Below, piece after piece: positions 3,856 through 63,481 of a stretch of 64,000 nt of DNA. The position numbers were made by a program, and so were the translations under genes. The stretch lies in assembly GCF_003334305.1 (NCBI RefSeq), contig NZ_QOWS01000008.1. One strand, written 5' to 3'. Source of the stretch: Escherichia coli. Lineage in GTDB: Bacteria; Pseudomonadota; Gammaproteobacteria; Enterobacterales; Enterobacteriaceae. The notes below the pieces were generated by a model. The model had not been told where the DNA came from. It did not search any database and was given only the letters and a program-made list of their open reading frames with translations. Each line of letters begins with the position of its first letter. Within the stretch, counting starts at the first letter, position 1.

Positions 3856-4214
3856 TCAAAACCTCAAAATAACATCGTAGTTGGCGAGTTCGCGGCGTAA
3901 GGCATCTGCTTCGAGCGGCGTGGCTTCGACAACAAAGGGTGTCTGCGGATCTAACCCGCGTTCGCGCAGTGAAGCCGCACAAACCCAGCACTGTTCAATG
4001 TCGTACAGACCCAACAATTTAAAAGTGGCAATGTAATCACGCGCCAGCACTGCATCGGGCTTTTGTCCTGACAGCAGCTGAAAAACGCCATCAGCGATAA
4101 AGAAGACGGCCAGATCGTCAGTTAATGCGGAAGTTGCCAGTAAAGCATCTAAACCTTCCCGACCAGCAGCTGTACCATGAGGTGCAGTAGAAAAAACAAA
4201 CGCAATTCGTTTCA

Positions 4215-4215
<1 letters not shown>
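3856..4215 (-). CDS. tusC: Sulfur relay protein TusC
   Basis: 119-aa [29 protein letters not shown]...; DsrE/DsrF-like; start overlaps the tusD stop. Confidence 0.9.
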
Positions 4216-5323
<1,108 letters not shown>

Positions 5324-7684: not shown

Positions 7685-9490
7685 CTACTCAAATTCATCC
7701 CAGCCGTCCAGCTGGCGTCGTTCTTGTTGCATTTCACGCTGGAAAATCTCTTCCAGTTCGCGTCGGGCTTCCCTGGCGCGAGAAATTTGTACGGTATCGG
7801 CATGCATTGGGATGAGCTCTCGCAGCATCCGCATATCCAGGCGGCGAAAATGCAGTTGCGCCCGCTGTGCCTGATGCGGATGCATGCCAAGCGTGACCAG
7901 CGTCTTGCGCCCCAGCTCTAACGCACTGGAGAATGTTTCACGGGAAAACTGCGTCACCCCTGCCTGTAATAACTCATGCGCTTCCACACGTCCGCGCGCT
8001 CGCGCAAGAATATGCAAATGCGGAAAGTGCTGCTGGCATATTTCCACCAGCTTCATGGTGTCTTCCGGCTCGTTACAGGTAATGACGATAGACTCAGCGG
8101 CCTCTGCACCCGCAGAACGTAAAAGATCGACCTGCGTGGCGTCGCCGTAATAAACTTTGTAGCCATATTTACGCATCAGGTTAACGGCGCTGATATCCCG
8201 CTCCAGCACGGTAATGCGCATTTTATTTGCCATCAGCAAACGACCAATCACCTGACCAAAACGCCCGAAGCCCACGACAATGACCTGGGGTTTATCATCG
8301 TTGACCCACGGTTTTTCGTCTTCTTCTTCCGGTCCGTTAAACTGGCGGGATAGCCATTTATCCACCAGCTTCATCAGCAACGGCGTGGTCATCATGGAAA
8401 GCGTCACCGTCACCAGCAACAGCGCCATCTGGTCGCCCTGGAATAAACGTTGTGAAGAAGCGGTAGAAAAGAGGACAAAGGCAAACTCACCGCCCTGACT
8501 CAACACGCCAGCAAACTGCATCCGCTCTGAGCTACGCACGCCATACAATCGCGCCAGCAGATACAGCACGAGAATTTTCACCGCCACCAGCACAACCACG
8601 CTTATCACTACCCACAACAGATGGGTATAAAGCACCCCGAGGTTGAGCGACATGCCGACAGAGATAAAGAACAAACCGAGCAGCAAGCCTTTGAAGGGAT
8701 CGATAGCCGTTTCCAGTTCATGGCGATATTCACTTTCCGCCAGCAGCACGCCCGCAATAAATGTACCGAGCGCCATCGACAGCCCCAGCGCATCCATAAA
8801 CAATGCGGAACCCAACACCAGCAGCAGCGTCGCGGCGGTGAACACTTCCCGCACGCCAGAAGCTGCAATAAAGCGGAATACCGGACGCAGTAAATAGCGC
8901 CCGCCAATCAGCATGCCGACAAACGCCAGCACCTTCATGCCGATCTTCATCCAGTCGAAATGTTCGTCTGCCGAACCCGCCAACAACGGCACTAACGCCA
9001 GTGCCGGGATCACCGCCAGATCCTGAAACAGCAGAACCGAAAACCCGAGCTGCCCGGATTCGCTGCGATTCATCCCTTTCTCACGCATCAATTGCAACGC
9101 CATTGCAGTTGAAGACATCGCAAGGCCAATGCCACCGACAACCGCCGCCTGCCAGGCGAAATCCGTCAGCATCAATAATCCCGCCAGCAACGCCGCGCTT
9201 AACAGCACCTGTGCCGCGCCTACGCCAAAAATCGAACGCCGCAGTTGCCAAAGTTTGGAGGGATTCAACTCAAGACCGATGATAAACATCAGGAATACCA
9301 CGCCGAGTTCCGAAAAGTGGAGGATCTCATCGACGTCGCTAATAAACCCCAGCCCCCATGGACCAATTGCAATTCCTGCCAGCAAATATCCCAACACAGC
9401 GCCAATACCCAGCCGCGATGCCAGCGGCACCGCAGCCACCGCCGCGAAGAGAAACAGCACTCCTGCGAGTAAAAAATCGGAACCTTCCAT
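7685..9490 (-). CDS. kefB: Glutathione-regulated K+ efflux system protein KefB
   Basis: 601-aa [52 protein letters not shown]...; membrane domain plus C-terminal KTN/Rossmann domain ([11 protein letters not shown]). Confidence 0.95.
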
Positions 9491-10044
9491 CAGCGGCCTC
9501 CTGGAGACAGCGGATTTGCCAGCCAGTCACCGTAGGCTCTGGCGTGACTCGCCAGCTCCTGTGCGCTTTGCCGTCTCGCCCAGTAAATAATGATGGGACT
9601 TAACCAATGCATCCGGCACATGCCCGCCGCCAGTTCAAAGGGACGCAGAACATCGCTCATCGGGTAGCGATTCAATGCGTCATAACGGTAAGCACTTTCC
9701 GGCTCGCCGGTGGTAATCACGCTACGCCAGTACTTTCCCGCCAGTTGGTTTCCTCCCGGCCCGCTGGCAAAACCACGACTTAATACCCGGTCCAGCCACT
9801 CTTTCAGTAGCGCCGGGCAGCTATAGGTATAAAGAGGATGCTGAAAGACAATCACCTCGTGCTCGCGCAGTAATGCCTGCTCACGGGGGATATCAATAAA
9901 AAAATCGGGATAGTGCGCATAAAGGTCGTGCACGGTAACATTGCTGAGCTGCGTGGCCGGTTTAAGCAGTACCCGGTTTGCCACCGAGTCCTGAGATTCC
10001 GGATGGGCATACAGCAGCAAAACTTTCGCTGGCTGAGACATCAT
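9490..10044 (-). CDS. kefG: KefB ancillary protein KefG (NAD(P)H quinone oxidoreductase-like)
   Basis: 184-aa [32 protein letters not shown]...; stop overlaps the kefB start (translational coupling). Confidence 0.92.
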
Positions 10045-10171: not shown

Positions 10172-12085
10172 ATGATTGTTTTCTCCTCGTTACAAATTCG
10201 TCGCGGCGTGCGCGTCCTGCTGGATAATGCCACCGCCACCATCAACCCTGGGCAGAAAGTCGGCCTGGTGGGTAAAAACGGCTGTGGTAAATCTACCCTG
10301 CTGGCATTGCTGAAAAATGAAATCAGCGCCGACGGCGGCAGCTACACCTTTCCGGGAAGCTGGCAACTGGCGTGGGTGAATCAGGAAACGCCGGCGTTAC
10401 CGCAAGCGGCGCTGGAATATGTCATTGACGGCGACCGTGAATATCGTCAACTAGAAGCGCAGCTACACGACGCCAACGAACGTAACGACGGGCACGCCAT
10501 TGCGACCATTCATGGCAAGCTGGATGCTATTGACGCATGGAGTATTCGCTCCCGTGCCGCCAGCCTGCTGCACGGCCTCGGTTTCAGCAATGAACAACTG
10601 GAGCGCCCGGTAAGTGATTTCTCCGGTGGCTGGCGTATGCGTCTTAACCTTGCCCAGGCGCTGATTTGCCGTTCAGACTTGCTGCTGCTAGACGAACCGA
10701 CTAACCACCTCGATCTCGATGCCGTTATCTGGCTGGAAAAATGGTTGAAGAGCTATCAGGGCACGCTGATCCTGATCTCTCACGACCGCGACTTCCTCGA
10801 TCCGATCGTTGATAAAATTATTCATATCGAACAACAAAGCATGTTCGAGTACACCGGCAACTACAGTTCGTTTGAAGTACAGCGCGCCACCCGTCTGGCG
10901 CAGCAACAAGCGATGTATGAAAGCCAGCAGGAACGCGTAGCGCATCTGCAAAGTTATATCGACCGTTTCCGTGCCAAAGCCACCAAAGCGAAGCAGGCCC
11001 AGAGCCGCATTAAGATGCTCGAGCGTATGGAGCTGATTGCCCCCGCGCACGTCGACAACCCGTTCCGCTTTAGCTTCCGCGCGCCGGAAAGCCTGCCAAA
11101 TCCGTTACTGAAGATGGAAAAAGTCAGCGCGGGCTATGGCGATCGCATTATTCTCGACTCGATTAAACTGAACCTGGTGCCCGGCTCGCGCATTGGTCTG
11201 TTAGGCCGCAACGGCGCGGGTAAATCGACATTAATCAAACTGTTAGCCGGTGAACTTGCGCCAGTCAGCGGTGAAATTGGTCTGGCGAAAGGGATCAAGC
11301 TCGGCTACTTCGCCCAGCATCAACTTGAATACCTGCGCGCCGACGAATCACCTATTCAACATCTGGCACGTTTAGCGCCGCAGGAGCTGGAACAAAAACT
11401 GCGTGACTACCTCGGCGGCTTTGGTTTCCAGGGCGATAAAGTAACCGAAGAAACGCGCCGCTTCTCAGGTGGGGAAAAAGCCCGCCTGGTGCTGGCATTA
11501 ATTGTCTGGCAGCGTCCGAATCTGCTGCTGCTCGACGAACCGACTAACCACCTTGACCTCGACATGCGTCAGGCACTCACCGAAGCATTAATCGAGTTTG
11601 AAGGCGCGCTGGTTGTCGTTTCGCACGACCGTCATTTGCTGCGTTCCACCACTGACGATCTCTACCTGGTTCACGATCGTAAAGTCGAACCGTTCGACGG
11701 CGATCTGGAAGATTATCAACAGTGGTTGAGCGACGTACAAAAGCAGGAAAACCAGACCGACGAAGCGCCAAAAGAGAACGCGAACAGCGCCCAGGCACGT
11801 AAAGATCAGAAGCGTCGGGAAGCGGAGCTGCGTGCGCAAACCCAGCCGCTGCGTAAAGAGATTGCCCGTCTGGAAAAAGAGATGGAGAAGCTGAACGCGC
11901 AACTGGCGCAGGCGGAAGAGAAACTCGGCGACAGCGAACTGTATGACCAGAGCCGTAAAGCGGAGTTGACCGCCTGCCTGCAACAGCAAGCCAGCGCCAA
12001 ATCCGGCCTGGAAGAGTGCGAAATGGCGTGGCTGGAAGCCCAGGAGCAGCTTGAGCAGATGCTGCTGGAAGGCCAAAGCAACTGA
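10172..12085 (+). CDS. yheS: ABC-F family ATPase YheS
   Basis: 637-aa ORF with two ABC cassettes (Walker A GKNGCGKST and GRNGAGKST, two LSGG signature motifs) and a C-terminal coiled-coil tail. Confidence 0.93.
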   Translation: MIVFSSLQIRRGVRVLLDNATATINPGQKVGLVGKNGCGKSTLLALLKNEISADGGSYTFPGSWQLAWVNQETPALPQAALEYVIDGDREYRQLEAQLHDANERNDGHAIATIHGKLDAIDAWSIRSRAASLLHGLGFSNEQLERPVSDFSGGWRMRLNLAQALICRSDLLLLDEPTNHLDLDAVIWLEKWLKSYQGTLILISHDRDFLDPIVDKIIHIEQQSMFEYTGNYSSFEVQRATRLAQQQAMYESQQERVAHLQSYIDRFRAKATKAKQAQSRIKMLERMELIAPAHVDNPFRFSFRAPESLPNPLLKMEKVSAGYGDRIILDSIKLNLVPGSRIGLLGRNGAGKSTLIKLLAGELAPVSGEIGLAKGIKLGYFAQHQLEYLRADESPIQHLARLAPQELEQKLRDYLGGFGFQGDKVTEETRRFSGGEKARLVLALIVWQRPNLLLLDEPTNHLDLDMRQALTEALIEFEGALVVVSHDRHLLRSTTDDLYLVHDRKVEPFDGDLEDYQQWLSDVQKQENQTDEAPKENANSAQARKDQKRREAELRAQTQPLRKEIARLEKEMEKLNAQLAQAEEKLGDSELYDQSRKAELTACLQQQASAKSGLEECEMAWLEAQEQLEQMLLEGQSN

Positions 12086-13107
12086 TGGCGCAGATAACGA
12101 CGACCGATGCCAATGAATTTAGCAGCAGTGCTGAATTCACCCCTATGCGCGGCTTTAGCAATTGTCATCTACAAACTATGCTGCCGCGTTTGTTTCGTCG
12201 TCAGGTGAAATTCACCCCGTACTGGCAGCGGCTGGAGTTGCCCGACGGCGATTTTGTCGATCTCGCGTGGAGTGAAGACCCCGCACAGGCGAAACATAAA
12301 CCGCGTTTAGTGGTGTTTCACGGGCTGGAAGGCAGTCTCAATAGCCCTTACGCCCACGGTCTGGTTGAGGCGGCGCAAAAGCGCGGCTGGCTGGGCGTGG
12401 TGATGCATTTTCGCGGATGCAGCGGTGAACCAAACCGTATGCACCGCATTTACCATTCGGGCGAAACCGAAGACGCCAGTTGGTTTTTACGCTGGCTGCA
12501 ACGCGAATTTGGTCATGCGCCAACGGCTGCCGTCGGCTATTCGCTCGGCGGTAATATGCTGGCCTGTTTGCTAGCAAAGGAAGGCAATGATCTCCCGGTT
12601 GATGCGGCGGTGATTGTCTCTGCGCCGTTTATGCTGGAAGCCTGTAGCTATCATATGGAAAAGGGCTTTTCCCGCGTTTATCAGCGTTACTTGCTGAACC
12701 TGTTAAAAGCCAATGCCGCGCGCAAGCTGGCAGCCTACCCCGGAACGCTGCCGATTAATCTCGCGCAGTTAAAATCGGTACGTCGCATCCGTGAATTTGA
12801 CGATCTCATCACCGCCAGAATTCACGGCTACGCCGACGCTATCGACTATTATCGTCAGTGTAGCGCCATGCCGATGCTGAACCGGATCGCCAAACCGACG
12901 CTGATTATTCACGCCAAAGACGATCCGTTTATGGATCATCAGGTGATCCCGAAACCGGAAAGTCTCCCCCCGCAGGTGGAGTATCAACTGACTGAACATG
13001 GCGGTCATGTTGGCTTTATTGGCGGTACATTACTTCATCCGCAAATGTGGCTGGAGTCACGCATTCCTGACTGGTTAACAACGTATCTGGAGGCGAAATC
13101 ATGTTGA
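12085..13107 (+). CDS. yheT: Alpha/beta-hydrolase fold protein YheT
   Basis: 340-aa [40 protein letters not shown]...; GYSLGG nucleophile elbow. Confidence 0.9.
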
Positions 13108-15647: not shown

Positions 15648-15680
15648 GGCGCGTTACCTGGTAGCGCGCCATTTTGTTTC
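15648..15680 (+). terminator. Intrinsic terminator after crp
   Basis: ggcgcg-ttacctggtag-cgcgcc followed by attttgtttc. Confidence 0.7.
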
Positions 15681-15685
15681 CCCCG

Positions 15686-17776
15686 ATGTGGCGCAGACTG
15701 ATTTATCACCCCGATATCAACTATGCACTTCGACAAACGCTGGTGCTATGTTTGCCCGTGGCCGTTGGGTTAATGCTTGGCGAATTACGATTCGGTCTGC
15801 TCTTCTCTCTCGTTCCTGCCTGTTGCAATATTGCGGGCCTTGATACGCCTCATAAACGTTTTTTCAAACGCTTAATCATTGGTGCGTCGCTGTTTGCCAC
15901 CTGTAGCTTACTGACACAGCTGCTACTGGCAAAAGATGTTCCCCTGCCCTTTTTGCTGACCGGATTAACGCTGGTACTTGGCGTCACTGCTGAGTTGGGG
16001 CCATTGCACGCAAAATTGCTTCCCGCATCGCTGCTGGCAGCCATTTTTACCCTCAGTCTGGCGGGATACATGCCGGTCTGGGAACCGTTGCTCATCTATG
16101 CGTTGGGCACTCTCTGGTACGGATTGTTTAACTGGTTTTGGTTCTGGATCTGGCGCGAACAACCGCTGCGCGAGTCACTAAGTCTGCTGTACCGTGAACT
16201 GGCAGATTATTGTGAAGCCAAATACAGCCTGCTTACCCAGCACACCGACCCTGAAAAAGCGCTGCCGCCGCTGCTGGTGCGCCAGCAAAAAGCGGTCGAT
16301 CTAATTACCCAGTGCTATCAGCAAATGCATATGCTTTCCGCGCAAAATAATACTGACTACAAGCGGATGCTGCGTATTTTCCAGGAGGCGCTGGATTTAC
16401 AGGAACATATTTCGGTCAGTTTGCATCAGCCGGAAGAGGTGCAAAAGCTGGTCGAGCGTAGCCATGCGGAAGAAGTTATCCGCTGGAATGCGCAAACCGT
16501 CGCCGCTCGCCTGCGCGTGCTGGCTGATGACATTCTTTACCATCGCCTGCCAACGCGTTTTACGATGGAAAAGCAAATTGGCGCACTGGAAAAAATCGCC
16601 CGCCAGCATCCGGATAATCCGGTTGGGCAATTCTGCTACTGGCATTTCAGCCGCATCGCCCGCGTGCTGCGCACCCAAAAACCGCTCTATGCCCGTGACT
16701 TACTGGCCGATAAACAGCGGCGAATGCCATTACTTCCGGCGCTGAAAAGTTATCTGTCACTAAAGTCTCCGGCGCTACGCAATGCCGGACGACTCAGTGT
16801 GATGTTAAGCGTTGCCAGCCTGATGGGCACCGCGCTGCATCTGCCGAAGTCGTACTGGATCCTGATGACGGTATTGCTGGTGACACAAAATGGCTATGGC
16901 GCAACCCGTCTGAGGATTGTGAATCGCTCCGTGGGAACCGTGGTCGGGTTAATCATTGCGGGCGTGGCGCTGCACTTTAAAATTCCCGAAGGTTACACCC
17001 TGACGTTGATGCTGATTACCACCCTCGCCAGCTACCTGATATTGCGCAAAAACTACGGCTGGGCGACGGTCGGTTTTACTATTACCGCAGTGTATACCCT
17101 GCAACTATTGTGGTTGAACGGCGAGCAATACATCCTTCCGCGTCTTATCGATACCATTATTGGTTGTTTAATTGCTTTCGGCGGTACTGTCTGGCTGTGG
17201 CCGCAGTGGCAGAGCGGGTTATTGCGTAAAAACGCCCATGACGCTTTAGAAGCCTATCAGGAAGCGATTCGCTTGATTCTTAGCGAGGATCCGCAACCTA
17301 CGCCACTGGCCTGGCAGCGAATGCGGGTAAATCAGGCACATAACACTCTGTATAACTCATTGAATCAGGCGATGCAGGAACCGGCGTTTAACAGCCATTA
17401 TCTGGCAGATATGAAACTGTGGGTAACGCACAGCCAGTTTATTGTTGAGCATATTAATGCCATGACCACGCTGGCGCGGGAACACCGGGCATTGCCACCT
17501 GAACTGGCACAAGAGTATTTACAGTCTTGTGAAATCGCCATTCAGCGTTGTCAGCAGCGACTGGAGTATGACGAACCGGGTAGTTCTGGCGATGCCAATA
17601 TCATGGATGCGCCGGAGATGCAGCCGCACGAAGGCGCGGCAGGTACGCTGGAGCAGCATTTACAGCGGGTTATTGGTCATCTGAACACCATGCACACCAT
17701 TTCGTCGATGGCATGGCGTCAGCGACCGCATCACGGGATTTGGCTGAGTCGCAAGTTGCGGGATTCGAAGGCGTAA
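15686..17776 (+). CDS. yhfK: Inner-membrane FUSC-like putative transporter YhfK
   Basis: ORF track begins at a TTG (15674); the first ATG (15686) gives MWRRLIYHPDINYALRQTLVLCLPVAVGLMLG..., about 696 aa; multiple hydrophobic segments in both halves. Confidence 0.88.
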   Translation: MWRRLIYHPDINYALRQTLVLCLPVAVGLMLGELRFGLLFSLVPACCNIAGLDTPHKRFFKRLIIGASLFATCSLLTQLLLAKDVPLPFLLTGLTLVLGVTAELGPLHAKLLPASLLAAIFTLSLAGYMPVWEPLLIYALGTLWYGLFNWFWFWIWREQPLRESLSLLYRELADYCEAKYSLLTQHTDPEKALPPLLVRQQKAVDLITQCYQQMHMLSAQNNTDYKRMLRIFQEALDLQEHISVSLHQPEEVQKLVERSHAEEVIRWNAQTVAARLRVLADDILYHRLPTRFTMEKQIGALEKIARQHPDNPVGQFCYWHFSRIARVLRTQKPLYARDLLADKQRRMPLLPALKSYLSLKSPALRNAGRLSVMLSVASLMGTALHLPKSYWILMTVLLVTQNGYGATRLRIVNRSVGTVVGLIIAGVALHFKIPEGYTLTLMLITTLASYLILRKNYGWATVGFTITAVYTLQLLWLNGEQYILPRLIDTIIGCLIAFGGTVWLWPQWQSGLLRKNAHDALEAYQEAIRLILSEDPQPTPLAWQRMRVNQAHNTLYNSLNQAMQEPAFNSHYLADMKLWVTHSQFIVEHINAMTTLAREHRALPPELAQEYLQSCEIAIQRCQQRLEYDEPGSSGDANIMDAPEMQPHEGAAGTLEQHLQRVIGHLNTMHTISSMAWRQRPHHGIWLSRKLRDSKA

Positions 17777-19743: not shown

Positions 19744-20346
19744 TTACTCAGATTCCCCGGCTTCGCTTACCACTTTGCTAAATATCATCTGCAGCGCGGT
19801 GAGATCCCCCATTGCCCCACTCTGATTTGCCTGATTCCAGGCTTCTTTTTCGATACCCTGCCAGCTCAGTTGATATCCGGCATGAATCGCCAGTTGCTCG
19901 AAGAAGATCCGCTGTGCCAGTCCGCTTCCCACACGGAAGGGATGCAGCACGTTGATTTCACAATAGTAATGCGCCAGCCGCTCGACGAACTTCGCTTTCT
20001 CCAGGCCAACCAGATAACCTTCTTCCTCCAGATCCTGCATCAGGGCATTGCCCTCTTTTTCGATATAAGCAAAGTGGCAGAACGGCGTATCGCCCTGATA
20101 AATATCAACTTCACGCAGTTGCCCCGCCCAGTCGAAAATATCCTGATACAGCTGGCGATGGATAGTGCGCAAATGCGGTAAACCGCGCACCAGCGGACCA
20201 AGCTCAATGGTCGCAGCACGCAGCGCCGTCATTTCGTAAGCGGCCTGTTCCAGCCGCTGCTGCTGGTGGATGTTCAGCCGGTTACGCATGATATCAAGGC
20301 CAGGATAAAGATACGGATCGCGCCCTTCGCCGAATTTATCGCTCAT
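19744..20346 (-). CDS. fic: Fic-family protein (cell filamentation protein; adenylyltransferase fold)
   Basis: 200-aa [54 protein letters not shown]...; Fic motif HPFRVGSG present. Confidence 0.93.
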
Positions 20347-22893: not shown

Positions 22894-25437
22894 ATGAGCA
22901 AAGTCAGACTCGCAATTATCGGTAACGGTATGGTCGGCCATCGCTTTATCGAAGATCTTCTTGATAAATCTGATGCGGCCAACTTTGATATTACCGTTTT
23001 CTGTGAAGAACCGCGCATCGCTTATGACCGCGTACACCTCTCGTCTTACTTCTCTCACCACACCGCCGAAGAGCTGTCGCTGGTGCGCGAAGGCTTCTAC
23101 GAGAAACACGGCATCAAAGTTCTGGTCGGCGAACGCGCTATCACCATCAACCGTCAGGAGAAGGTGATTCACTCCAGCGCCGGGCGTACCGTTTTTTATG
23201 ACAAGCTGATCATGGCGACCGGTTCCTACCCGTGGATCCCGCCAATCAAAGGTTCTGATACTCAGGACTGCTTTGTCTATCGCACCATTGAAGACCTCAA
23301 CGCCATTGAATCCTGCGCCCGTCGCAGCAAACGCGGTGCCGTTGTTGGTGGCGGCCTGTTAGGTCTGGAAGCCGCTGGCGCGCTGAAAAACTTAGGTATT
23401 GAAACCCACGTTATCGAATTTGCCCCTATGCTGATGGCGGAACAGCTTGATCAGATGGGTGGCGAGCAGCTGCGTCGCAAAATCGAAAGTATGGGCGTGC
23501 GCGTTCACACCAGCAAAAACACCCTTGAGATTGTGCAGGAAGGTGTCGAAGCGCGTAAAACCATGCGTTTTGCCGACGGCAGCGAGCTGGAAGTTGACTT
23601 TATCGTCTTCTCTACCGGTATCCGTCCGCGCGATAAGCTGGCAACCCAGTGTGGTCTGGACGTTGCTCCGCGTGGGGGTATCGTCATTAATGATTCCTGC
23701 CAGACTTCCGATCCGGATATCTACGCCATCGGTGAATGCGCAAGCTGGAACAACCGTGTATTTGGTCTGGTAGCACCAGGCTACAAAATGGCGCAGGTCG
23801 CCGTTGACCATATTCTGGGTAGCGAAAACGCCTTTGAAGGTGCTGACCTTAGCGCCAAGCTGAAACTGCTGGGCGTAGACGTAGGCGGTATTGGTGATGC
23901 GCACGGTCGCACGCCTGGCGCACGTAGCTACGTTTACCTCGACGAAAGTAAAGAGATCTACAAACGCCTGATTGTCAGCGAAGACAACAAAACCCTGCTC
24001 GGTGCGGTACTGGTGGGCGATACCAGCGACTACGGTAACCTGCTGCAACTGGTGCTGAACGCTATCGAACTGCCGGAAAACCCGGATTCCCTGATCCTGC
24101 CAGCACACTCTGGTAGCGGCAAGCCGTCTATCGGTGTTGATAAACTGCCGGACAGCGCGCAAATCTGCTCCTGCTTCGACGTCACCAAAGGTGATCTGAT
24201 TGCTGCCATCAACAAAGGCTGCCACACCGTTGCGGCGCTGAAAGCTGAAACCAAAGCGGGTACTGGCTGCGGTGGCTGTATCCCGCTGGTTACTCAGGTA
24301 CTGAACGCGGAACTGGCGAAACAGGGCATCGAAGTTAACAACAACCTGTGCGAACACTTTGCTTATTCGCGTCAGGAACTGTTCCATTTGATCCGCGTTG
24401 AAGGCATTAAAACCTTCGAAGAACTGCTGGCGAAACACGGCAAAGGCTACGGTTGTGAAGTTTGTAAACCAACCGTCGGTTCGCTGCTGGCCTCCTGCTG
24501 GAACGAATACATTCTGAAGCCGGAACATACTCCGCTGCAGGATTCTAACGATAACTTCCTCGCTAACATCCAGAAAGACGGCACCTACTCGGTGATCCCG
24601 CGCTCTCCGGGCGGTGAAATCACCCCGGAAGGGCTGATGGCGGTAGGTCGTATCGCGCGTGAATTTAATCTCTACACCAAGATCACTGGCTCCCAGCGTC
24701 TGGCGATGTTTGGCGCACAGAAAGACGATCTGCCGGAAATCTGGCGTCAGCTGATTGAAGCTGGCTTCGAAACCGGTCATGCCTATGCGAAAGCACTGCG
24801 TATGGCGAAAACCTGCGTGGGTAGCACCTGGTGCCGCTACGGTGTTGGCGATAGCGTCGGCCTCGGCGTGGAACTGGAAAACCGCTACAAAGGCATCCGT
24901 ACGCCGCACAAAATGAAGTTCGGTGTCTCCGGCTGTACCCGTGAATGTTCAGAAGCTCAGGGTAAAGACGTGGGTATTATCGCCACTGAAAAAGGCTGGA
25001 ACCTGTATGTTTGCGGTAACGGCGGCATGAAACCGCGTCATGCGGATCTGCTGGCAGCGGATATCGATCGCGAAACGCTGATCAAATATCTCGACCGCTT
25101 CATGATGTTCTACATCCGTACCGCCGACAAACTGACGCGTACCGCGCCGTGGTTAGAAAACCTCGAAGGCGGCATCGATTATCTGAAAGCGGTGATCATT
25201 GACGACAAACTGGGGCTGAACGCACATCTGGAAGAAGAGATGGCGCGCCTGCGTGAAGCGGTAGTGTGTGAGTGGACTGAAACGGTCAATACACCGTCCG
25301 CGCAGACTCGCTTCAAACACTTCATCAACAGCGACAAGCGTGACCCGAACGTACAGATGGTGCCAGAGCGCGAACAGCACCGTCCGGCAACGCCGTATGA
25401 ACGTATCCCGGTAACTCTGGTGGAGGACAACGCATGA
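22894..25437 (+). CDS. nirB: NADH-dependent nitrite reductase large subunit
   Basis: 847-aa ORF MSKVRLAIIGNGMVGHRFIEDLLDKSDAANFDITVFCEEPRIAYDRVHLS...; FAD/NAD dinucleotide folds, Fe-S and siroheme motifs. Confidence 0.97.
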   Translation: MSKVRLAIIGNGMVGHRFIEDLLDKSDAANFDITVFCEEPRIAYDRVHLSSYFSHHTAEELSLVREGFYEKHGIKVLVGERAITINRQEKVIHSSAGRTVFYDKLIMATGSYPWIPPIKGSDTQDCFVYRTIEDLNAIESCARRSKRGAVVGGGLLGLEAAGALKNLGIETHVIEFAPMLMAEQLDQMGGEQLRRKIESMGVRVHTSKNTLEIVQEGVEARKTMRFADGSELEVDFIVFSTGIRPRDKLATQCGLDVAPRGGIVINDSCQTSDPDIYAIGECASWNNRVFGLVAPGYKMAQVAVDHILGSENAFEGADLSAKLKLLGVDVGGIGDAHGRTPGARSYVYLDESKEIYKRLIVSEDNKTLLGAVLVGDTSDYGNLLQLVLNAIELPENPDSLILPAHSGSGKPSIGVDKLPDSAQICSCFDVTKGDLIAAINKGCHTVAALKAETKAGTGCGGCIPLVTQVLNAELAKQGIEVNNNLCEHFAYSRQELFHLIRVEGIKTFEELLAKHGKGYGCEVCKPTVGSLLASCWNEYILKPEHTPLQDSNDNFLANIQKDGTYSVIPRSPGGEITPEGLMAVGRIAREFNLYTKITGSQRLAMFGAQKDDLPEIWRQLIEAGFETGHAYAKALRMAKTCVGSTWCRYGVGDSVGLGVELENRYKGIRTPHKMKFGVSGCTRECSEAQGKDVGIIATEKGWNLYVCGNGGMKPRHADLLAADIDRETLIKYLDRFMMFYIRTADKLTRTAPWLENLEGGIDYLKAVIIDDKLGLNAHLEEEMARLREAVVCEWTETVNTPSAQTRFKHFINSDKRDPNVQMVPEREQHRPATPYERIPVTLVEDNA

Positions 25438-40814: not shown

Positions 40815-41819
40815 TTACGGCTTCGCCACAAAACCAATCGCTTCGTACACCGCTTTCAGCGTACGGGAAGCGTGTACACTGGCTTTTTCTGCGCCGTCTT
40901 TCATCACCTGTTGCAGGAAGGCTTCATCGTTGCGGAAACGATGATAGCGTTCCTGCAATTCAGTCAGCATACCGGAAACGGCATCAGCCACTTCACCTTT
41001 CAGATGACCATACATCTTGCCTTCGAACTGTTTTTCCAGTTCTGGGATGCTCTGGCCCGTTACCGCAGAAAGGATATCCAGCAGGTTGGAAACGCCCGCT
41101 TTGTTCTGCACATCGTAGCGAACTACCGGCGGCTCGTCGGAGTCAGTGACCGCGCGTTTGATTTTCTTCACTACCGATTTCGGATCTTCCAGCAGGCCGA
41201 TAACGTTATTGCGGTTATCGTCAGACTTGGACATCTTCTTGGTCGGCTCCAGCAGCGACATTACGCGCGCGCCAGATTTCGGAATAAACGGCTCCGGCAC
41301 CTTAAAGATCTCGCCATACAGCGCGTTGAAACGCTGGGCGATATCGCGACTCAGTTCCAGGTGCTGTTTCTGGTCTTCACCCACCGGTACCAGATTAGTT
41401 TGATACAGCAGGATGTCCGCAGCCATCAGCACCGGATAGTCAAACAGACCAGCGTTGATGTTCTCGGCATAACGCGCAGATTTATCTTTAAACTGGGTCA
41501 TGCGGCTCAGTTCGCCGAAGTAGGTATAGCAGTTCAGTGCCCAGCCTAACTGCGCATGTTCTGGTACGTGGGACTGAACAAAAATGGTGCTTTTCTCAGG
41601 ATCGATACCACAAGCCAGATACAAGGCCAGCGTATCCAGCGTCGCTTTACGCAGCTTCTGTGCATCCTGGCGCACGGTGATCGCGTGTTGGTCAACGATA
41701 CAGTAAATGCAATGGTAGTCATCCTGCATGTTTACCCACTGACGCAGCGCACCCATGTAGTTACCAATGGTCAATTCACCTGAGGGCTGTGCGCCACTAA
41801 AAACGATGGGCTTAGTCAT
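40815..41819 (-). CDS. trpS: Tryptophan--tRNA ligase
   Basis: 334-aa [52 protein letters not shown]...KMSKS; class-I aaRS motifs. Confidence 0.97.
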
Positions 41820-42570
41820 TTTTCGATTCCTGATTTTCGCTATGCGGAAGCCCTAATGCGGGCAGAAGGTCATTTATAGACTGATAAATTACATCAGGCT
41901 GGCTGAGATCGATAGCCTCGCCGTAGTTATATCCGTAGGTTAAGCCAACTGATGGGCAACCTGCCGCTTTTGCCGCCTGAATATCATTGCGTGAGTCGCC
42001 GACAAACAGCATCTCTTGTGGGGCAATTCCCATCCGCTCAGCCACCAGTAACAGCGGGTCCGGATGCGGTTTTTTGTTTTGCACATCATCGCCGCCGATA
42101 ACCACGCTAAAGTATTTGGCAATATCTAAGGCTTCGAGCAGCGGCGCGACGAACGGCGTCGGTTTGTTGGTGACCAGGCCTAGCGGCAGGCCTTTAGCCT
42201 GCAACGCGCCCAACGTATCGGCAACGTGCGGGAACAAAAACGTCCCCTCTTCGGCAACCTCGCTATAGTAGCGATCGAACAGTTTACGCAGAATACGTAC
42301 CTGTTCTTCTGCCGGAATGTCGTCATCAACGGGCGGTTTACCCATTGTTTTACGCAGAGTCGCACGTTCCTGACGCGCCCAGGCCAATGCACGCTCCATC
42401 AGAACATCTGCGCCGTTACCAATCCAGGTAATAACGCGTTCTTCACCTGCGACGGGTAACTCCAACGCATACAGCGCCATATCTACCGCAGCAGCAAGAC
42501 CGGGAGCACTGTCCACCAGCGTACCGTCGAGATCAAAAGCGACGCCGCGAATATCTTCAAACTTACTCAT
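41812..42570 (-). CDS. gph: Phosphoglycolate phosphatase (HAD family)
   Basis: 252-aa [42 protein letters not shown]... Confidence 0.95.
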
Positions 42571-47645: not shown

Positions 47646-48884
47646 TTACTCACTGGAAACCAGTCGTGGCGTGATAAACACCACTAACTCGCGTCGTTCA
47701 TCTTCTTTTCCGTCATGACGAAATAATTGCCCGAACCAGGGAATGTCGCCAAGCAACGGCACGCTATCCTGACCCGATTTATTTTTACGGGTAAAAATGC
47801 CGCCCAGCGCCAACGTTTCTCCGCTTTTGACCTCGACCTGCGTTTCGATCTCCTGCTTATCAATCGCCAGCACTTCGCCATCGGCCTGCTGTAGCACCTG
47901 CCCCGGAACGTTCTGGCTGATGTGTAATTTCAGCCGGATGCGACCTTTTTGTAACACCGTGGGCGTGACCTCCATCCCCAGGACGGCCTCTTTAAATTCC
48001 ACCGACGTCGCGCCACTTTCCCCGCTGGAAACCTGATATGGAATTTCGCTCCCCTGTTTAATACTGGCAGGCTGAAGATGTGAGGCCAGCAGACGCGGAC
48101 TGGCGATAATATCCAGTTGCTGTTTTTGTTCGAGCGCGGAAAGCTCAAGATCCAGCAAACGTCCGTTGATGCGCCCAATGTTAAAACCGACATGCGTTGT
48201 CGCCGTCGCTACGGAGAGGTCGCTACCAAGCGTGGTGACTTGCCCAACACCACCAGCGTGTTGCGCATCGGCCAGCGTCCATTTCACGCCTAACTCACGC
48301 AAACTTTTTTCATTAATGGTGACAATATGCGCCGACAGCTCAACCTGCCCGACCGGAAGATCCATTTGCGCTACCCACTGTTCAAGCGCGCTTAACGCCG
48401 TTTTGTTATCTCGTAGCAAAAGGCGATTGGTGCGTTTATCGACGGTCATACTCCCTTTGGCACTCAGTAGCTTCTCCCCCGCTTTCGCCAGTTCTCCCGC
48501 GTCGGCGTATTGCAGGGTTATACTGCGATTTTCCAGCGGCAGATTTGCCTGCGCCCGCGCCTGCTCCGCCTCCTGGCGGGCGATATTGTCATTCTGCCAG
48601 GCAATAGAATGCACTGAGAGAATGTTGCCCTCCTGGCGCGTTATCAGCCCGGCGCTTTTCACTACAGTTTGTAGTGCCTGCTTCCAGGGAACATCTGTTA
48701 GATGTAACGACACCGTACCGCTGACGTCTGGCGACACGACCAGGTTCAACTTCTCCTGTTCAGCCAGCGCCTGCAACACCTGAGCCACCGGAACGTCATC
48801 CACCATCAGCGTCACTTTTTGCGGCTTTGCCGCCTGTACGCCGGGTATCAGCATCAACAGTAGTGCGGCTATCCATTGCTTCAT
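47646..48884 (-). CDS. hofQ: Secretin-family outer membrane channel HofQ (DNA uptake / type IV pilus-like system)
   Basis: 412-aa ORF with signal peptide MKQWIAALLLMLIPGVQA and C-terminal secretin domain (...GGIFTRKNKSGQDSVPLLGDIPWFGQLF...). Confidence 0.93.
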   Translation of the reverse strand: MKQWIAALLLMLIPGVQAAKPQKVTLMVDDVPVAQVLQALAEQEKLNLVVSPDVSGTVSLHLTDVPWKQALQTVVKSAGLITRQEGNILSVHSIAWQNDNIARQEAEQARAQANLPLENRSITLQYADAGELAKAGEKLLSAKGSMTVDKRTNRLLLRDNKTALSALEQWVAQMDLPVGQVELSAHIVTINEKSLRELGVKWTLADAQHAGGVGQVTTLGSDLSVATATTHVGFNIGRINGRLLDLELSALEQKQQLDIIASPRLLASHLQPASIKQGSEIPYQVSSGESGATSVEFKEAVLGMEVTPTVLQKGRIRLKLHISQNVPGQVLQQADGEVLAIDKQEIETQVEVKSGETLALGGIFTRKNKSGQDSVPLLGDIPWFGQLFRHDGKEDERRELVVFITPRLVSSE

Positions 48885-49200
48885 TTGTATCTCCTTGCCG
48901 TTGCCACAACCATTGTGGCGGTTCGCAGTTTGTCCCGGTACCCAGCGTTAGTACGTCTGGCGTCAGCTGTAAAATTGTCCAGCCGTTTTCCAGCACATCG
49001 TTTTGCTGCACCCGTCGCCATTTCTTTTGCCCGTCTTTTATTACACCGATGATGCGCTCGCCTCGCCCTACCATCCCCTGATAGCGCCACTGGCTAAGTT
49101 CGCTAATCCGGCATAGATCTTCCGGCGGTTTAAAAGGGTCACGCATACCGGTTAAAAGGCACAATGCAATACCTGCCAACAACCAGCGTTTAACCCTCAT
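48796..49200 (-). CDS. hofP: Pilus assembly-like protein HofP
   Basis: Conserved 134-aa form MRVKRWLLAGIALCLLTGMRDPFKPPEDL... from the ATG at 49198-49200; its 3' end overlaps the hofQ start by 89 bp. Confidence 0.8.
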   Translation of the reverse strand: MRVKRWLLAGIALCLLTGMRDPFKPPEDLCRISELSQWRYQGMVGRGERIIGVIKDGQKKWRRVQQNDVLENGWTILQLTPDVLTLGTGTNCEPPQWLWQRQGDTNEAMDSRTTVDADTRRTGGKAAKSDADGG

Positions 49201-49630
49201 GCGGCGTCTCCAGTTGTAGCGTGAACAAAAGATCATCACCTTCCACGCTTAACGAAAAACGGCTCACGCTGACGTTGCGCTCTGCCAGCCGTGTAAATGC
49301 CGACGGCACTGCTTCCCACAGCGTTTTCAACGCCAACTCGCCTCCCTGCGCGGATGGATGCCAGGAAACCAGTTGCGCGCCGGATAACTGAAAATCCAGT
49401 GGCGAAAAGGGCAGCGTTTTTTCCTCGCTGAAGGGAGTGGTGTCTACCAGGCGATACAGTGCGGCCCACTGCTGGTGATGACTTGCCCGTAGTCGAATTA
49501 ATGCGTCGCGCTCTTCATGGTGTGTCGATGATAGAAAAATGAGCGTAACTAACATCAGCAACCAGAATGCCCAGCAAAGCTGGCGGAGGCGGGGTGATGT
49601 GGCGAACCACCAGTCAAAGAACATGTTCAT
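49190..49630 (-). CDS. hofO: Pilus assembly-like protein HofO
   Basis: 146-aa ORF MNMFFDWWFATSPRLRQLCWAFWLLMLVTLIFL... Confidence 0.85.
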   Translation of the reverse strand: MNMFFDWWFATSPRLRQLCWAFWLLMLVTLIFLSSTHHEERDALIRLRASHHQQWAALYRLVDTTPFSEEKTLPFSPLDFQLSGAQLVSWHPSAQGGELALKTLWEAVPSAFTRLAERNVSVSRFSLSVEGDDLLFTLQLETPHEG

Positions 49631-50153
49631 CGCTAACCTTCCTTGTTAACTGATACTCAAATTGCCAGCGTCCCTGCGCATCCTGCTGCGTGGCTCCCCG
49701 CTGATTGAGATGAAAAGACGCATCCTGGCGGAGTGACGTTTCTAGTGCGTTTAACGCGGTAATGCTTGTTGTCAGCCCCTTGATCTCCAGCGTTCCCTGC
49801 TGCCAGCTTATCGTTGTCAGCCAGGCGTGCTCGGGTAAAAGCGCCGCCAGTGCTTCCAGCGCAGATTGCCAGTCGCGGGTAAATTGTCGCTGGCGCTGCC
49901 GTTGCGAACGCTGTTCGCGTAACTGCTGTTGCTCCAGCAAACGTGGCTTCGTTATCTGTAAGCTGCGGGCGAGTTGTTGTTCCGCCTGAAGCAAAACTGC
50001 GTCTATGCGCGCTTCGGCGCTGCCTGTCAGACGCAGTATTAGCGTTATCCCGACGGCCAGCAGCAGAGGCGCAACGAACATCAGCAACCAGAAACGCAGA
50101 AAAGCGGTCCGGCGTTGCTGTCGCCAGGGCAAAAAATTAATTGGCGGGTTCAT
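49614..50153 (-). CDS. hofN: Pilus assembly-like protein HofN (PilN-like)
   Basis: 179-aa ORF MNPPINFLPWRQQRRTAFLRFWLLMFVAPLLLAVGITLILRL... Confidence 0.85.
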   Translation of the reverse strand: MNPPINFLPWRQQRRTAFLRFWLLMFVAPLLLAVGITLILRLTGSAEARIDAVLLQAEQQLARSLQITKPRLLEQQQLREQRSQRQRQRQFTRDWQSALEALAALLPEHAWLTTISWQQGTLEIKGLTTSITALNALETSLRQDASFHLNQRGATQQDAQGRWQFEYQLTRKVSDEHVL

Positions 50154-50932
50154 CAGTACGCCTTCCCAAGCGCCAGCCCCAGCGCGATGGCAAAGTCTCC
50201 ACCTGGCGGCGGTAGCGGCGGCTGACGAACAGAAACGGCCTCCCAGGGATCAAATCCCCCTTCGCCACATATCGCGACGCTTTCGGGATCAACGGATAAC
50301 GCTGCCGCCAGCTCCTTCGCGCTAGTCATCCCCACCGCCAGTTTGCGCCCCCAGCGACAGCGTGTCGCCCACAGCCACTGTTCGTTATCACGCCAGGCCA
50401 GACATTGCTGATGAGAAGGTAAAAAAGGCAGGAATTGCTGTAATGCACTGGCATCCGGGGTGATCGCGCTCACATGAACACGCAACCTTTCTGCCAGAGT
50501 AAGTAGCGTTGCCAGCTCTTTGCTTTGCGCGGCAGTCACGTTATAGGCGGGGCTGAGTGAGTCTTCGCTGTAATCGAAGCGCAGGGAGTCCGGATCCATA
50601 TCCAGCTCGCGGGCCATCGTCCCTGACAGCCAGGCCGTTTGCTCCCGCTCACCAAGGGACATCGACGGGCGCGGAAATGACCGCTGTAATGTGCGACTGG
50701 CGGGAAACGCCAACATAATGTGATGACGCTGCGGCAGTTCGCGACTCCACGGTAACAACGTTTTAGCCAGCTGCTGCGCATCAACAATCCGCCCATCTTT
50801 GATAATGTCGTTCTCCAGCGGCAACCGCCACCAGCGTTGCAAAAAGCATTCTTTTGCTCCCCGCACGATCGCAACCGCTACCGCTTCTTGCTGTTGTAAA
50901 TGCAAACCAATTTGCCAGATCTTAAATGCCAT
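50153..50932 (-). CDS. hofM: Pilus assembly-like protein HofM (PilM-like)
   Basis: Conserved start MAFKIWQIGLHLQQQEAVAVAIVRGAKE... (259 aa, ATG at 50930-50932); the ORF track adds 9 upstream codons. Confidence 0.85.
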   Translation of the reverse strand: MAFKIWQIGLHLQQQEAVAVAIVRGAKECFLQRWWRLPLENDIIKDGRIVDAQQLAKTLLPWSRELPQRHHIMLAFPASRTLQRSFPRPSMSLGEREQTAWLSGTMARELDMDPDSLRFDYSEDSLSPAYNVTAAQSKELATLLTLAERLRVHVSAITPDASALQQFLPFLPSHQQCLAWRDNEQWLWATRCRWGRKLAVGMTSAKELAAALSVDPESVAICGEGGFDPWEAVSVRQPPLPPPGGDFAIALGLALGKAY

Positions 50933-58832: not shown

Positions 58833-58842
58833 TGAGTATGTC

Positions 58843-58869
58843 CGGCAGAGAGGGCTCTGCCGGATTTTA
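58843..58869 (+). terminator. Intrinsic terminator after hslO
   Basis: ccggcagag-aggg-ctctgccgg followed by atttta. Confidence 0.65.
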
Positions 58870-58966
58870 CGACGTAATGGCCTGATGTGCTGCGCTTACC
58901 AGGCCTGTGAAATAAATCGCAAATTATTGTTGGTCAGATACAGCGTCGTATCCGTTAAAAGAGTTG

Positions 58967-62808: not shown

Positions 62809-63126
62809 ATGTTCACCTTTATTGAACTACAAGGATTTAGCAAACGCCGCCAGTTATTGTTACCTGATGATGAGTTCCGGGCTTTTCAGGAACTACTCAT
62901 TCAAGATCCCACTGCCGGTGACATTATCGCAGGCACAGGCAGTTTTAGAAAAATTCGCTGGAACCGTTCTGGAATGGGGAAACGGGGTGGCATTCGGATA
63001 ATTTATTACAACGTAACACGCAATGGCCGAATTTATCTGGCGTTGATTTATCCTAAAAATGAACAGGATGATTTAACAGAAGAACAAAGAAAGGCATTGA
63101 AACTATTGTCAGAGAAGCTGCTTTAA
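62809..63126 (+). CDS. RelE/ParE-superfamily toxin of the HigB-2 type (toxin-first TA module)
   Basis: 105-aa ORF MFTFIELQGFSKRRQLLLPDDEFRAFQELLIQDPTAGDIIAGTGSFRKIRWNRSGMGKRGGIRIIYYNVTRNGRIYLALIYPKNEQDDLTEEQRKALKLLSEKLL. The blocks G-GxxRKIR, GKRGG-RIIYY and YLLxIYxKNE--DL match my recollection of Vibrio HigB-2-like toxins. Lies upstream of an HTH antitoxin; GC about 40%. Confidence 0.75.
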   Translation: MFTFIELQGFSKRRQLLLPDDEFRAFQELLIQDPTAGDIIAGTGSFRKIRWNRSGMGKRGGIRIIYYNVTRNGRIYLALIYPKNEQDDLTEEQRKALKLLSEKLL

Positions 63127-63184
63127 TGTTGAAGCTCCACAAATTCCACCATGGTCGAAATGCCAACGGAGACATTGAAAACAG

Positions 63185-63481
63185 ATGAAAGATGAATTAT
63201 TTGCTGATCTTCTTGCCAGCGCAGAAGAAATGGTACGCATCGAAAAGGGTGAAGAAACGCCTGAACCAGAGCACGTCCATACTTTTAGCGAGATCGATGT
63301 AAAAGCGATCCGTGAAGCAACGGGTTTACGTCAGCAAGATTTTGCTGTCGCCGTAGGGGTAAGTTATGACCTGGTCAAAAGCTGGGAAACCAAACGCCGT
63401 CAGCCTACCGGAGCACCTCGAAAATTGCTCCTGCTTTTGCAAGCGAATCCTTTCATTATCAATCAATTGAAAACAATCTAA
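63185..63481 (+). CDS. XRE-family HTH antitoxin (HigA-2-like)
   Basis: 98-aa ORF MKDELFADLLASAEEMVRIEKGEETPEPEHVHTFSEIDVKAIREATGLRQQDFAVAVGVSYDLVKSWETKRRQPTGAPRKLLLLLQANPFIINQLKTI; HTH signature in LRQQDFAVAVGVSYDLVKSWE; 58 bp downstream of the toxin gene. Confidence 0.75.
   Translation: MKDELFADLLASAEEMVRIEKGEETPEPEHVHTFSEIDVKAIREATGLRQQDFAVAVGVSYDLVKSWETKRRQPTGAPRKLLLLLQANPFIINQLKTI

Follow-up and report, generated by a model that had tools for sequence, protein, structure and literature searches.

The window analysed here, meaning the whole stretch of 64,000 nucleotides, spans tuf to envZ in Escherichia coli; it is identical base for base (100%) to positions 4376634-4440633 of NZ_CP028767.1 (E. 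coli strain A7, orangutan faeces) and collinear with positions 3,471,118-3,535,800 of K-12. At 9487-9493 its minus strand reads CTGATGG, wherein the stop codon TGA of kefG (9492..9490) and the start codon ATG of kefB (9490..9488) share the A at 9490, giving the TGATG junction with an overlap of 1 nt (9488..9492, minus strand) that was flagged for study. A Shine-Dalgarno (SD) motif for kefB, AGGAGG (9497..9502, minus strand), lies inside the last kefG codons (Gly-Gly) 6 nt before the ATG, with a predicted duplex energy of -10.3 kcal/mol. The 4-kb piece around 9487-9493 finds a match in every complete E. coli genome.

Gene coordinates were those of the PGAP annotation of A7, transferred to the window, in which all complete genes have a start and a stop codon and are free of internal stops. 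The geometry of the overlaps is the same in three annotations (PGAP of A7, PGAP of strain H15, and the curated K-12 record), and the window differs from H15 by 11 substitutions and 0 small indels over 64 kb, apart from a 682-bp deletion in php. With regard to gene ends, rpsG (2425-2964) extends 69 nt further 3' in the K-12 annotation than in that of PGAP.

Gene overlaps in the window

A first-pass annotation of this DNA had named 11 gene pairs sharing 1-8 nt between a stop and the next start, and coordinate comparison bears out every one of them, with overlaps of 1, 1, 1, 7, 4, 4, 1, 4, 8, 8, and 1 nt for kefG/kefB, tusD/tusC, yheS/yheT, yheT/yheU, nirB/nirD, frlC/frlD, yhfX/yhfW, yhfW/php, gph/trpS, rpe/gph, and hofM/hofN, respectively; the last pair had been given in reversed order (hofM is upstream of hofN), although its overlap is real. 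Besides kefG/kefB, the junctions read from annotations that include K-12 are, on the minus strand, the 1-nt TGATG overlaps of tusD/tusC (4213..4217) and hofM/hofN (50151..50155), the 1-nt TAATG overlap of yhfX/yhfW (38013..38017), and the 8-nt overlaps between the gph stop and the trpS start (41812..41819) and between the rpe stop and the gph start (42563..42570). On the plus strand they are the 1-nt TGATG overlap of yheS/yheT (12083..12087), the 7 nt shared by the yheT stop and the yheU start (13101..13107), and the 4-nt ATGA overlaps of nirB/nirD (25434..25437) and frlC/frlD (32051..32054). The annotated ATGA shared by the yhfW stop and the php start (4 nt; 36789..36792, minus strand) is intact in the php deletion allele.

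Five further overlaps, all on the minus strand, were absent from the earlier list and bring the full window list to 16. One is short, the 1-nt TAATG of the yheO stop and tusD start (4599..4603), also present in the K-12 annotation; the yhfG stop and fic start share 11 nt (20336..20346); and the hof operon (48796..49630) contains three longer overlaps, namely hofN/hofO (17 nt; 49614-49630), hofO/hofP (11 nt; 49190-49200), and hofP/hofQ (89 nt; 48796-48884). The last of these is unusually long and looks real from its sequence, the hofQ start having a good SD (AGGAG, spacing 6); judged by published spacing studies, 89 nt would be too long for efficient re-initiation.

Automatic annotation can prefer longer open reading frames, so that the true start of some downstream genes might be a later in-frame codon and the overlap an artefact; two other starts do indeed differ between PGAP and K-12, that of kefG (10041-10044) by one codon and that of yhfK (15674-15686) by four. 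This explanation is nevertheless extremely improbable, given that all 11 listed junctions and the five extra ones match the curated K-12 record exactly, that in 80 species the N-terminus of KefB (MEGSD...) starts from the overlapping ATG, and that the same start is used in both solved structures of Php (4lef and 1bf6).

Spacing and typicality of the overlaps

It is textbook knowledge that the operons of prokaryotes contain stop/start overlaps at spacings of -1, -4, and -8, and the window conforms to this pattern. Of its 53 co-directional junctions, 16 overlap, and among the 25 junctions spaced between -20 and +20, nine are exactly at -1 or -4, compared with about 1.5 expected under uniform spacing over the 33 values permitted by the genetic code (binomial p = 9e-6). 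Spacings of -8 to +10 account for 16 of the 53 co-directional junctions, a share that matches the published genome-wide share for E. coli, in which 820 pairs are spaced at -8 to +10 versus 1,630 at more than +20 (PMC10666635). Across all prokaryotes, the enriched spacings are -4, -1, and -8 (PMC12548453). There is thus nothing unusual in the tight junctions of the window: the description of such overlaps as pervasive is accurate, but it holds for E. coli generally and does not set this region apart, and the overlaps represent the ordinary, well-known, and already documented packing of E. coli operons.

Shine-Dalgarno motifs and RNA structure at the downstream starts

The start regions of the downstream genes in the overlapping pairs sit within the upstream genes, and their SD strength was calculated as the predicted duplex energy with the 3' end of 16S rRNA, random 17-mers from the window serving as the reference. 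The median energy was -7.7 kcal/mol in the class with overlaps of 1-8 nt, as against -5.8 kcal/mol for the first genes of operons and -2.2 kcal/mol for the random 17-mers. For eight of the 12 downstream genes in short-overlap pairs, the SD falls among the strongest 5% of random 17-mers and is, on these predicted energies, strong enough for independent initiation. The SDs of tusD, yheT, gph, and trpS are weak (-4.3 to -5.5 kcal/mol), and the short-overlap pairs in which these are the downstream genes (yheO/tusD, yheS/yheT, rpe/gph, and gph/trpS) are the foremost candidates for obligatory re-initiation. Plain pattern matching, which had returned no SD for tusC, yhfW, and tusD, was replaced by the duplex energies, which reveal usable G-rich motifs in tusC and yhfW.

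The strength of these motifs bears on whether the overlaps, while real, merely reflect compact packing, with downstream translation being mostly independent through de novo binding of 30S to the intragenic SD. Such independence would accord with the eight of 12 downstream SDs that equal or exceed those of operon first genes and with the conservation of the kefB SD at the nucleotide level, and it has a precedent in bioB/bioF, an overlapping pair whose downstream gene was found in reporter tests to be initiated de novo, independently of the upstream gene (PMC6728339). In the same body of work, however, tight coupling was seen for four of the five native E. coli pairs overlapping by 4 nt, despite their SDs, and although the contribution of the SD to coupling was variable, its removal lowered re-initiation (Huber et al. 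2019, PMC6728339). Independent initiation would also be poor at the weak SDs of the four genes named above, and as a general account of the window it is considered unlikely.

RNA folding was predicted for positions -60 to +40 around every start in the window, and accessibility was evaluated from -15 to +5. Predicted accessibility of the start region was 0.44 in the overlap class and 0.50 in first genes (p = 0.2). The median predicted folding energy was lower at overlap junctions (-26 versus -17 kcal/mol, p = 0.0025), but coding sequence is richer in G+C, which confounds this comparison, and predicted structure gave no meaningful separation of the two classes. Folding energy was accordingly rejected as support for a start-unfolding model, as the higher G+C alone would give the difference and accessibility was not significantly different.

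Conservation of the kefG/kefB junction

A scan for KefG in species-representative genomes yielded 80 Enterobacteriaceae loci with protein identities of 83-98%. The 1-nt overlap of kefG with kefB is found in 78 of these 80 species, the remaining two having spacings of 0 and -14 (one each). The kefG stop codon is TGA in 52 species and TAA in 28, its final A being invariant, and the tail of KefG is variable, with 52 versions of the last 10 residues among the 80 species. Within this variable tail, the GGAGG situated six bases before the kefB ATG is near-invariant; of the two Gly codons of kefG that spell it, the first is GGA in 71 of 80 species, and the second is GGC or GGT in 64 of 80. This asymmetry at synonymous sites points to selection on the nucleotide (RNA) sequence, i.e., the SD, and so indicates that the kefB SD is probably maintained by selection at the RNA level. 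As an internal control, the kefB-yheV spacer in the same loci takes 11 values, mostly from +3 to +19, with the mode of +10 seen in only 26 of 70. In E. coli, the paralogous kefF/kefC operon likewise has an ancillary-subunit gene that directly precedes the antiporter gene and overlaps it, but the overlap in K-12 is 8 nt instead of the 1 nt of kefG/kefB; that the genes of the Kef ancillary subunits overlap had already been remarked upon in a review of the Kef systems. The contig CACSKA010000004.1 bears the label 'Chryseobacterium sp. 18061' and has a kefG-kefB locus of enterobacterial type (KefG identity of 88%); the assembly is probably mislabelled or contaminated.

The stability of the overlap cannot be credited entirely to selection for coupling, since an indel at this position damages one of two genes. 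In its general form, this argument would make the overlaps a neutral by-product of genes drifting together that persists because indels are harmful, with no selected function. An NTG start followed by A creates a TGA stop, so spacings of -4 and -1 arise easily; several of the pairs are unrelated enzymes (rpe/gph/trpS); and the constancy of kefG/kefB could itself stem from constraint against frameshifts. Neutrality does not readily account for the synonymous-site bias that maintains GGAGG before kefB, for the presence of an overlap with a different geometry in kefF/kefC, or for the 4.5-fold genome-wide enrichment of overlapping E. coli pairs for subunits of heteromeric complexes (PMC10666635), and it is regarded as quite unlikely. 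The retention of both overlap and SD at kefG/kefB fits termination-reinitiation, although, being a pattern of sequence conservation, it is no proof of coupling.

Coupling by termination and re-initiation

Taken together, the junctions are genuine operon overlaps in the standard -1 (TRATG), -4 (ATGA), -7, and -8 forms, which likely operate by termination-reinitiation, in a chain that the php deletion leaves unbroken. The downstream translation-initiation region, usually with an SD of its own, lies within the 3'-terminal part of the upstream gene, and according to this mechanism a ribosome ending the upstream gene would halt on, or a few bases from, the next start and could re-initiate there with the aid of the intragenic SD. 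The output of the downstream gene would thereby be tied to that of the upstream gene, to a degree that probably varies between pairs. The observations made directly here are the geometry of the junctions, their non-random spacing, the SD motifs, and, at kefG/kefB, the long-term preservation of both overlap and SD. Actual coupling of translation at the window junctions we infer from what has been published for other pairs in E. coli; the literature on translation coupling and on Kef that was searched contained no coupling data for the window pairs, and the literature search returned no expression data for kefG/kefB or the yhfX-yhfS operon.

The pairs for which termination-reinitiation has been published exhibit the same spacings (-4 NTGA, -1 TRATG, and -8) and, likewise, are co-directional, lie in operons, possess an intragenic SD, and in about a third of cases encode subunits of one complex (PMC6728339; Huber et al. 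2023, PMC10666635; reviewed in Brown & Wade 2025, PMC12548453). The experimentally tested pairs are hyfHI, astDB, ydbH/ynbE, menDH, and bioBF, among which the window pairs do not figure, though they are otherwise the same in kind. Coupling is most efficient at spacings of -4 to +3 and declines with longer overlaps (PMC12548453), so that overlaps of 11-89 nt, as in the hof and fic operons, are less promising candidates. The suggestion that the overlaps are consistent with coupled translation can thus be kept insofar as they are real, co-directional, and located in compact operons, for which coupling is the standard reading; bioB/bioF nevertheless illustrates that overlap alone is no demonstration. 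For the window pairs, coupling is a reasonable and entirely conventional hypothesis.

As for the gene products, KefG/KefB, TusD/TusC, and NirB/NirD are subunits of one complex in each case (three of the 12 short-overlap pairs), HofM/HofN probably being a further such pair, while rpe/gph/trpS and frlC/frlD encode unrelated enzymes without an obvious need for fixed ratios. The share of complex subunits among the short-overlap pairs of the window is similar to the 30% of overlap pairs reported genome-wide (PMC10666635). Beyond correct annotation, the overlaps themselves are of little importance.

The php deletion and the php'-yhfU fusion

Comparison with K-12 and H15 shows that 682 bp of php (nucleotides 177-858 of 879) are missing from the window, the deletion junction lying at 36616..36617 on the minus strand with 1 nt of microhomology. 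Among 5,426 complete E. coli genomes, that of strain A7 alone matches an 80-nt probe across the deletion in full. A sequencing or assembly error is unlikely, as the loss is a clean one of 682 bp and the window otherwise shows only substitutions, with no small indels, against H15.

The inference that php originally belonged to a tightly packed operon is sound: in intact genomes, the spacings are -1 for yhfX/yhfW, -4 for yhfW/php, and +10 for php/yhfU, and yhfU/yhfT and yhfT/yhfS are both spaced at +11. The further inference that this packing makes the deletion more likely to be polar does not follow from the sequence. As 682 is a multiple of three plus 1, the reading frame is shifted by +1, and in the new frame the final 21 nt of php are read past the php TAA; the shifted frame then crosses the 10-nt spacer, enters the yhfU ATG in frame, and ends at the normal yhfU stop. 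Translation of the resulting open reading frame (36232..36792, minus strand) gives a fusion of 186 aa that comprises Php residues 1-58, an 11-residue linker (IPLNFSNKDRL) encoded by the frame-shifted end of php together with the php-yhfU spacer, and the complete YhfU (117 aa). PGAP records only a php pseudogene at this place, overlapping yhfU by 18 nt.

Classical polarity requires a premature stop followed by an untranslated stretch of RNA, on which Rho-dependent termination acts. The php lesion resembles classical polar mutations in that it disrupts a gene situated inside a compact operon, but differs from them in lacking a premature stop and producing an in-frame fusion; with neither a premature stop nor an untranslated stretch for Rho, classical polarity is not expected. 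Lowered expression of yhfU, yhfT, and yhfS might still be envisaged in so tightly packed an operon, particularly as the native YhfU start and its SD now lie inside an elongating reading frame, which may reduce YhfU of native size, and as the fusion protein may be unstable. Against such an effect, the php frame reads through without a premature stop as far as the end of yhfU, the deletion allele retains the yhfW/php ATGA and the junctions yhfU/yhfT and yhfT/yhfS unaltered, and a promoter and terminator scan of the deleted DNA found no promoter-like site and, on the coding (minus) strand, no terminator-like site. A polar effect is therefore judged very unlikely, and the A7 php lesion is better described as an in-frame php'-yhfU fusion than as a polar truncation.

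The deletion allele has lost nearly all of the Php fold known from structures 1bf6 and 4lef; Php activity is expected to be lost, and YhfU would be made largely as an N-terminally extended fusion. A more specific proposal, put forward tentatively as quite possible if somewhat doubtful, is that Php(1-58)-linker-YhfU is expressed, driven from the php start that overlaps the yhfW stop, and that YhfU in A7 is mainly N-terminally extended, with altered stability or function. If true, this would be a natural case of a coupled operon that is re-wired by a deletion, with no polarity ensuing. The fusion frame had a one-in-three chance of arising and calls for no appeal to design.

Other features of the region

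The yhfZ-yhfS cluster occupies 33819-40546, and a 1-kb yhfT-yhfW probe from it was matched in 5,076 of the 5,426 complete E. coli genomes and unmatched in about 350; the yhfT-yhfW part of the cluster is thus accessory and not universal. The hslO-yhgE spacer (58833-58966) measures 134 nt in the window and in H15 versus 62 nt in K-12, and contains, after hslO, a hairpin and then a T run, as well as a REP-like palindrome, GCCTGATGTGCTGCGCTTACCAGGCC, at about 58880-58905. Between pckA and envZ, the window carries a RelE/ParE-family toxin gene and nadS (62809-63481, plus strand), whereas in K-12 pck and envZ directly adjoin, with no genes between them.
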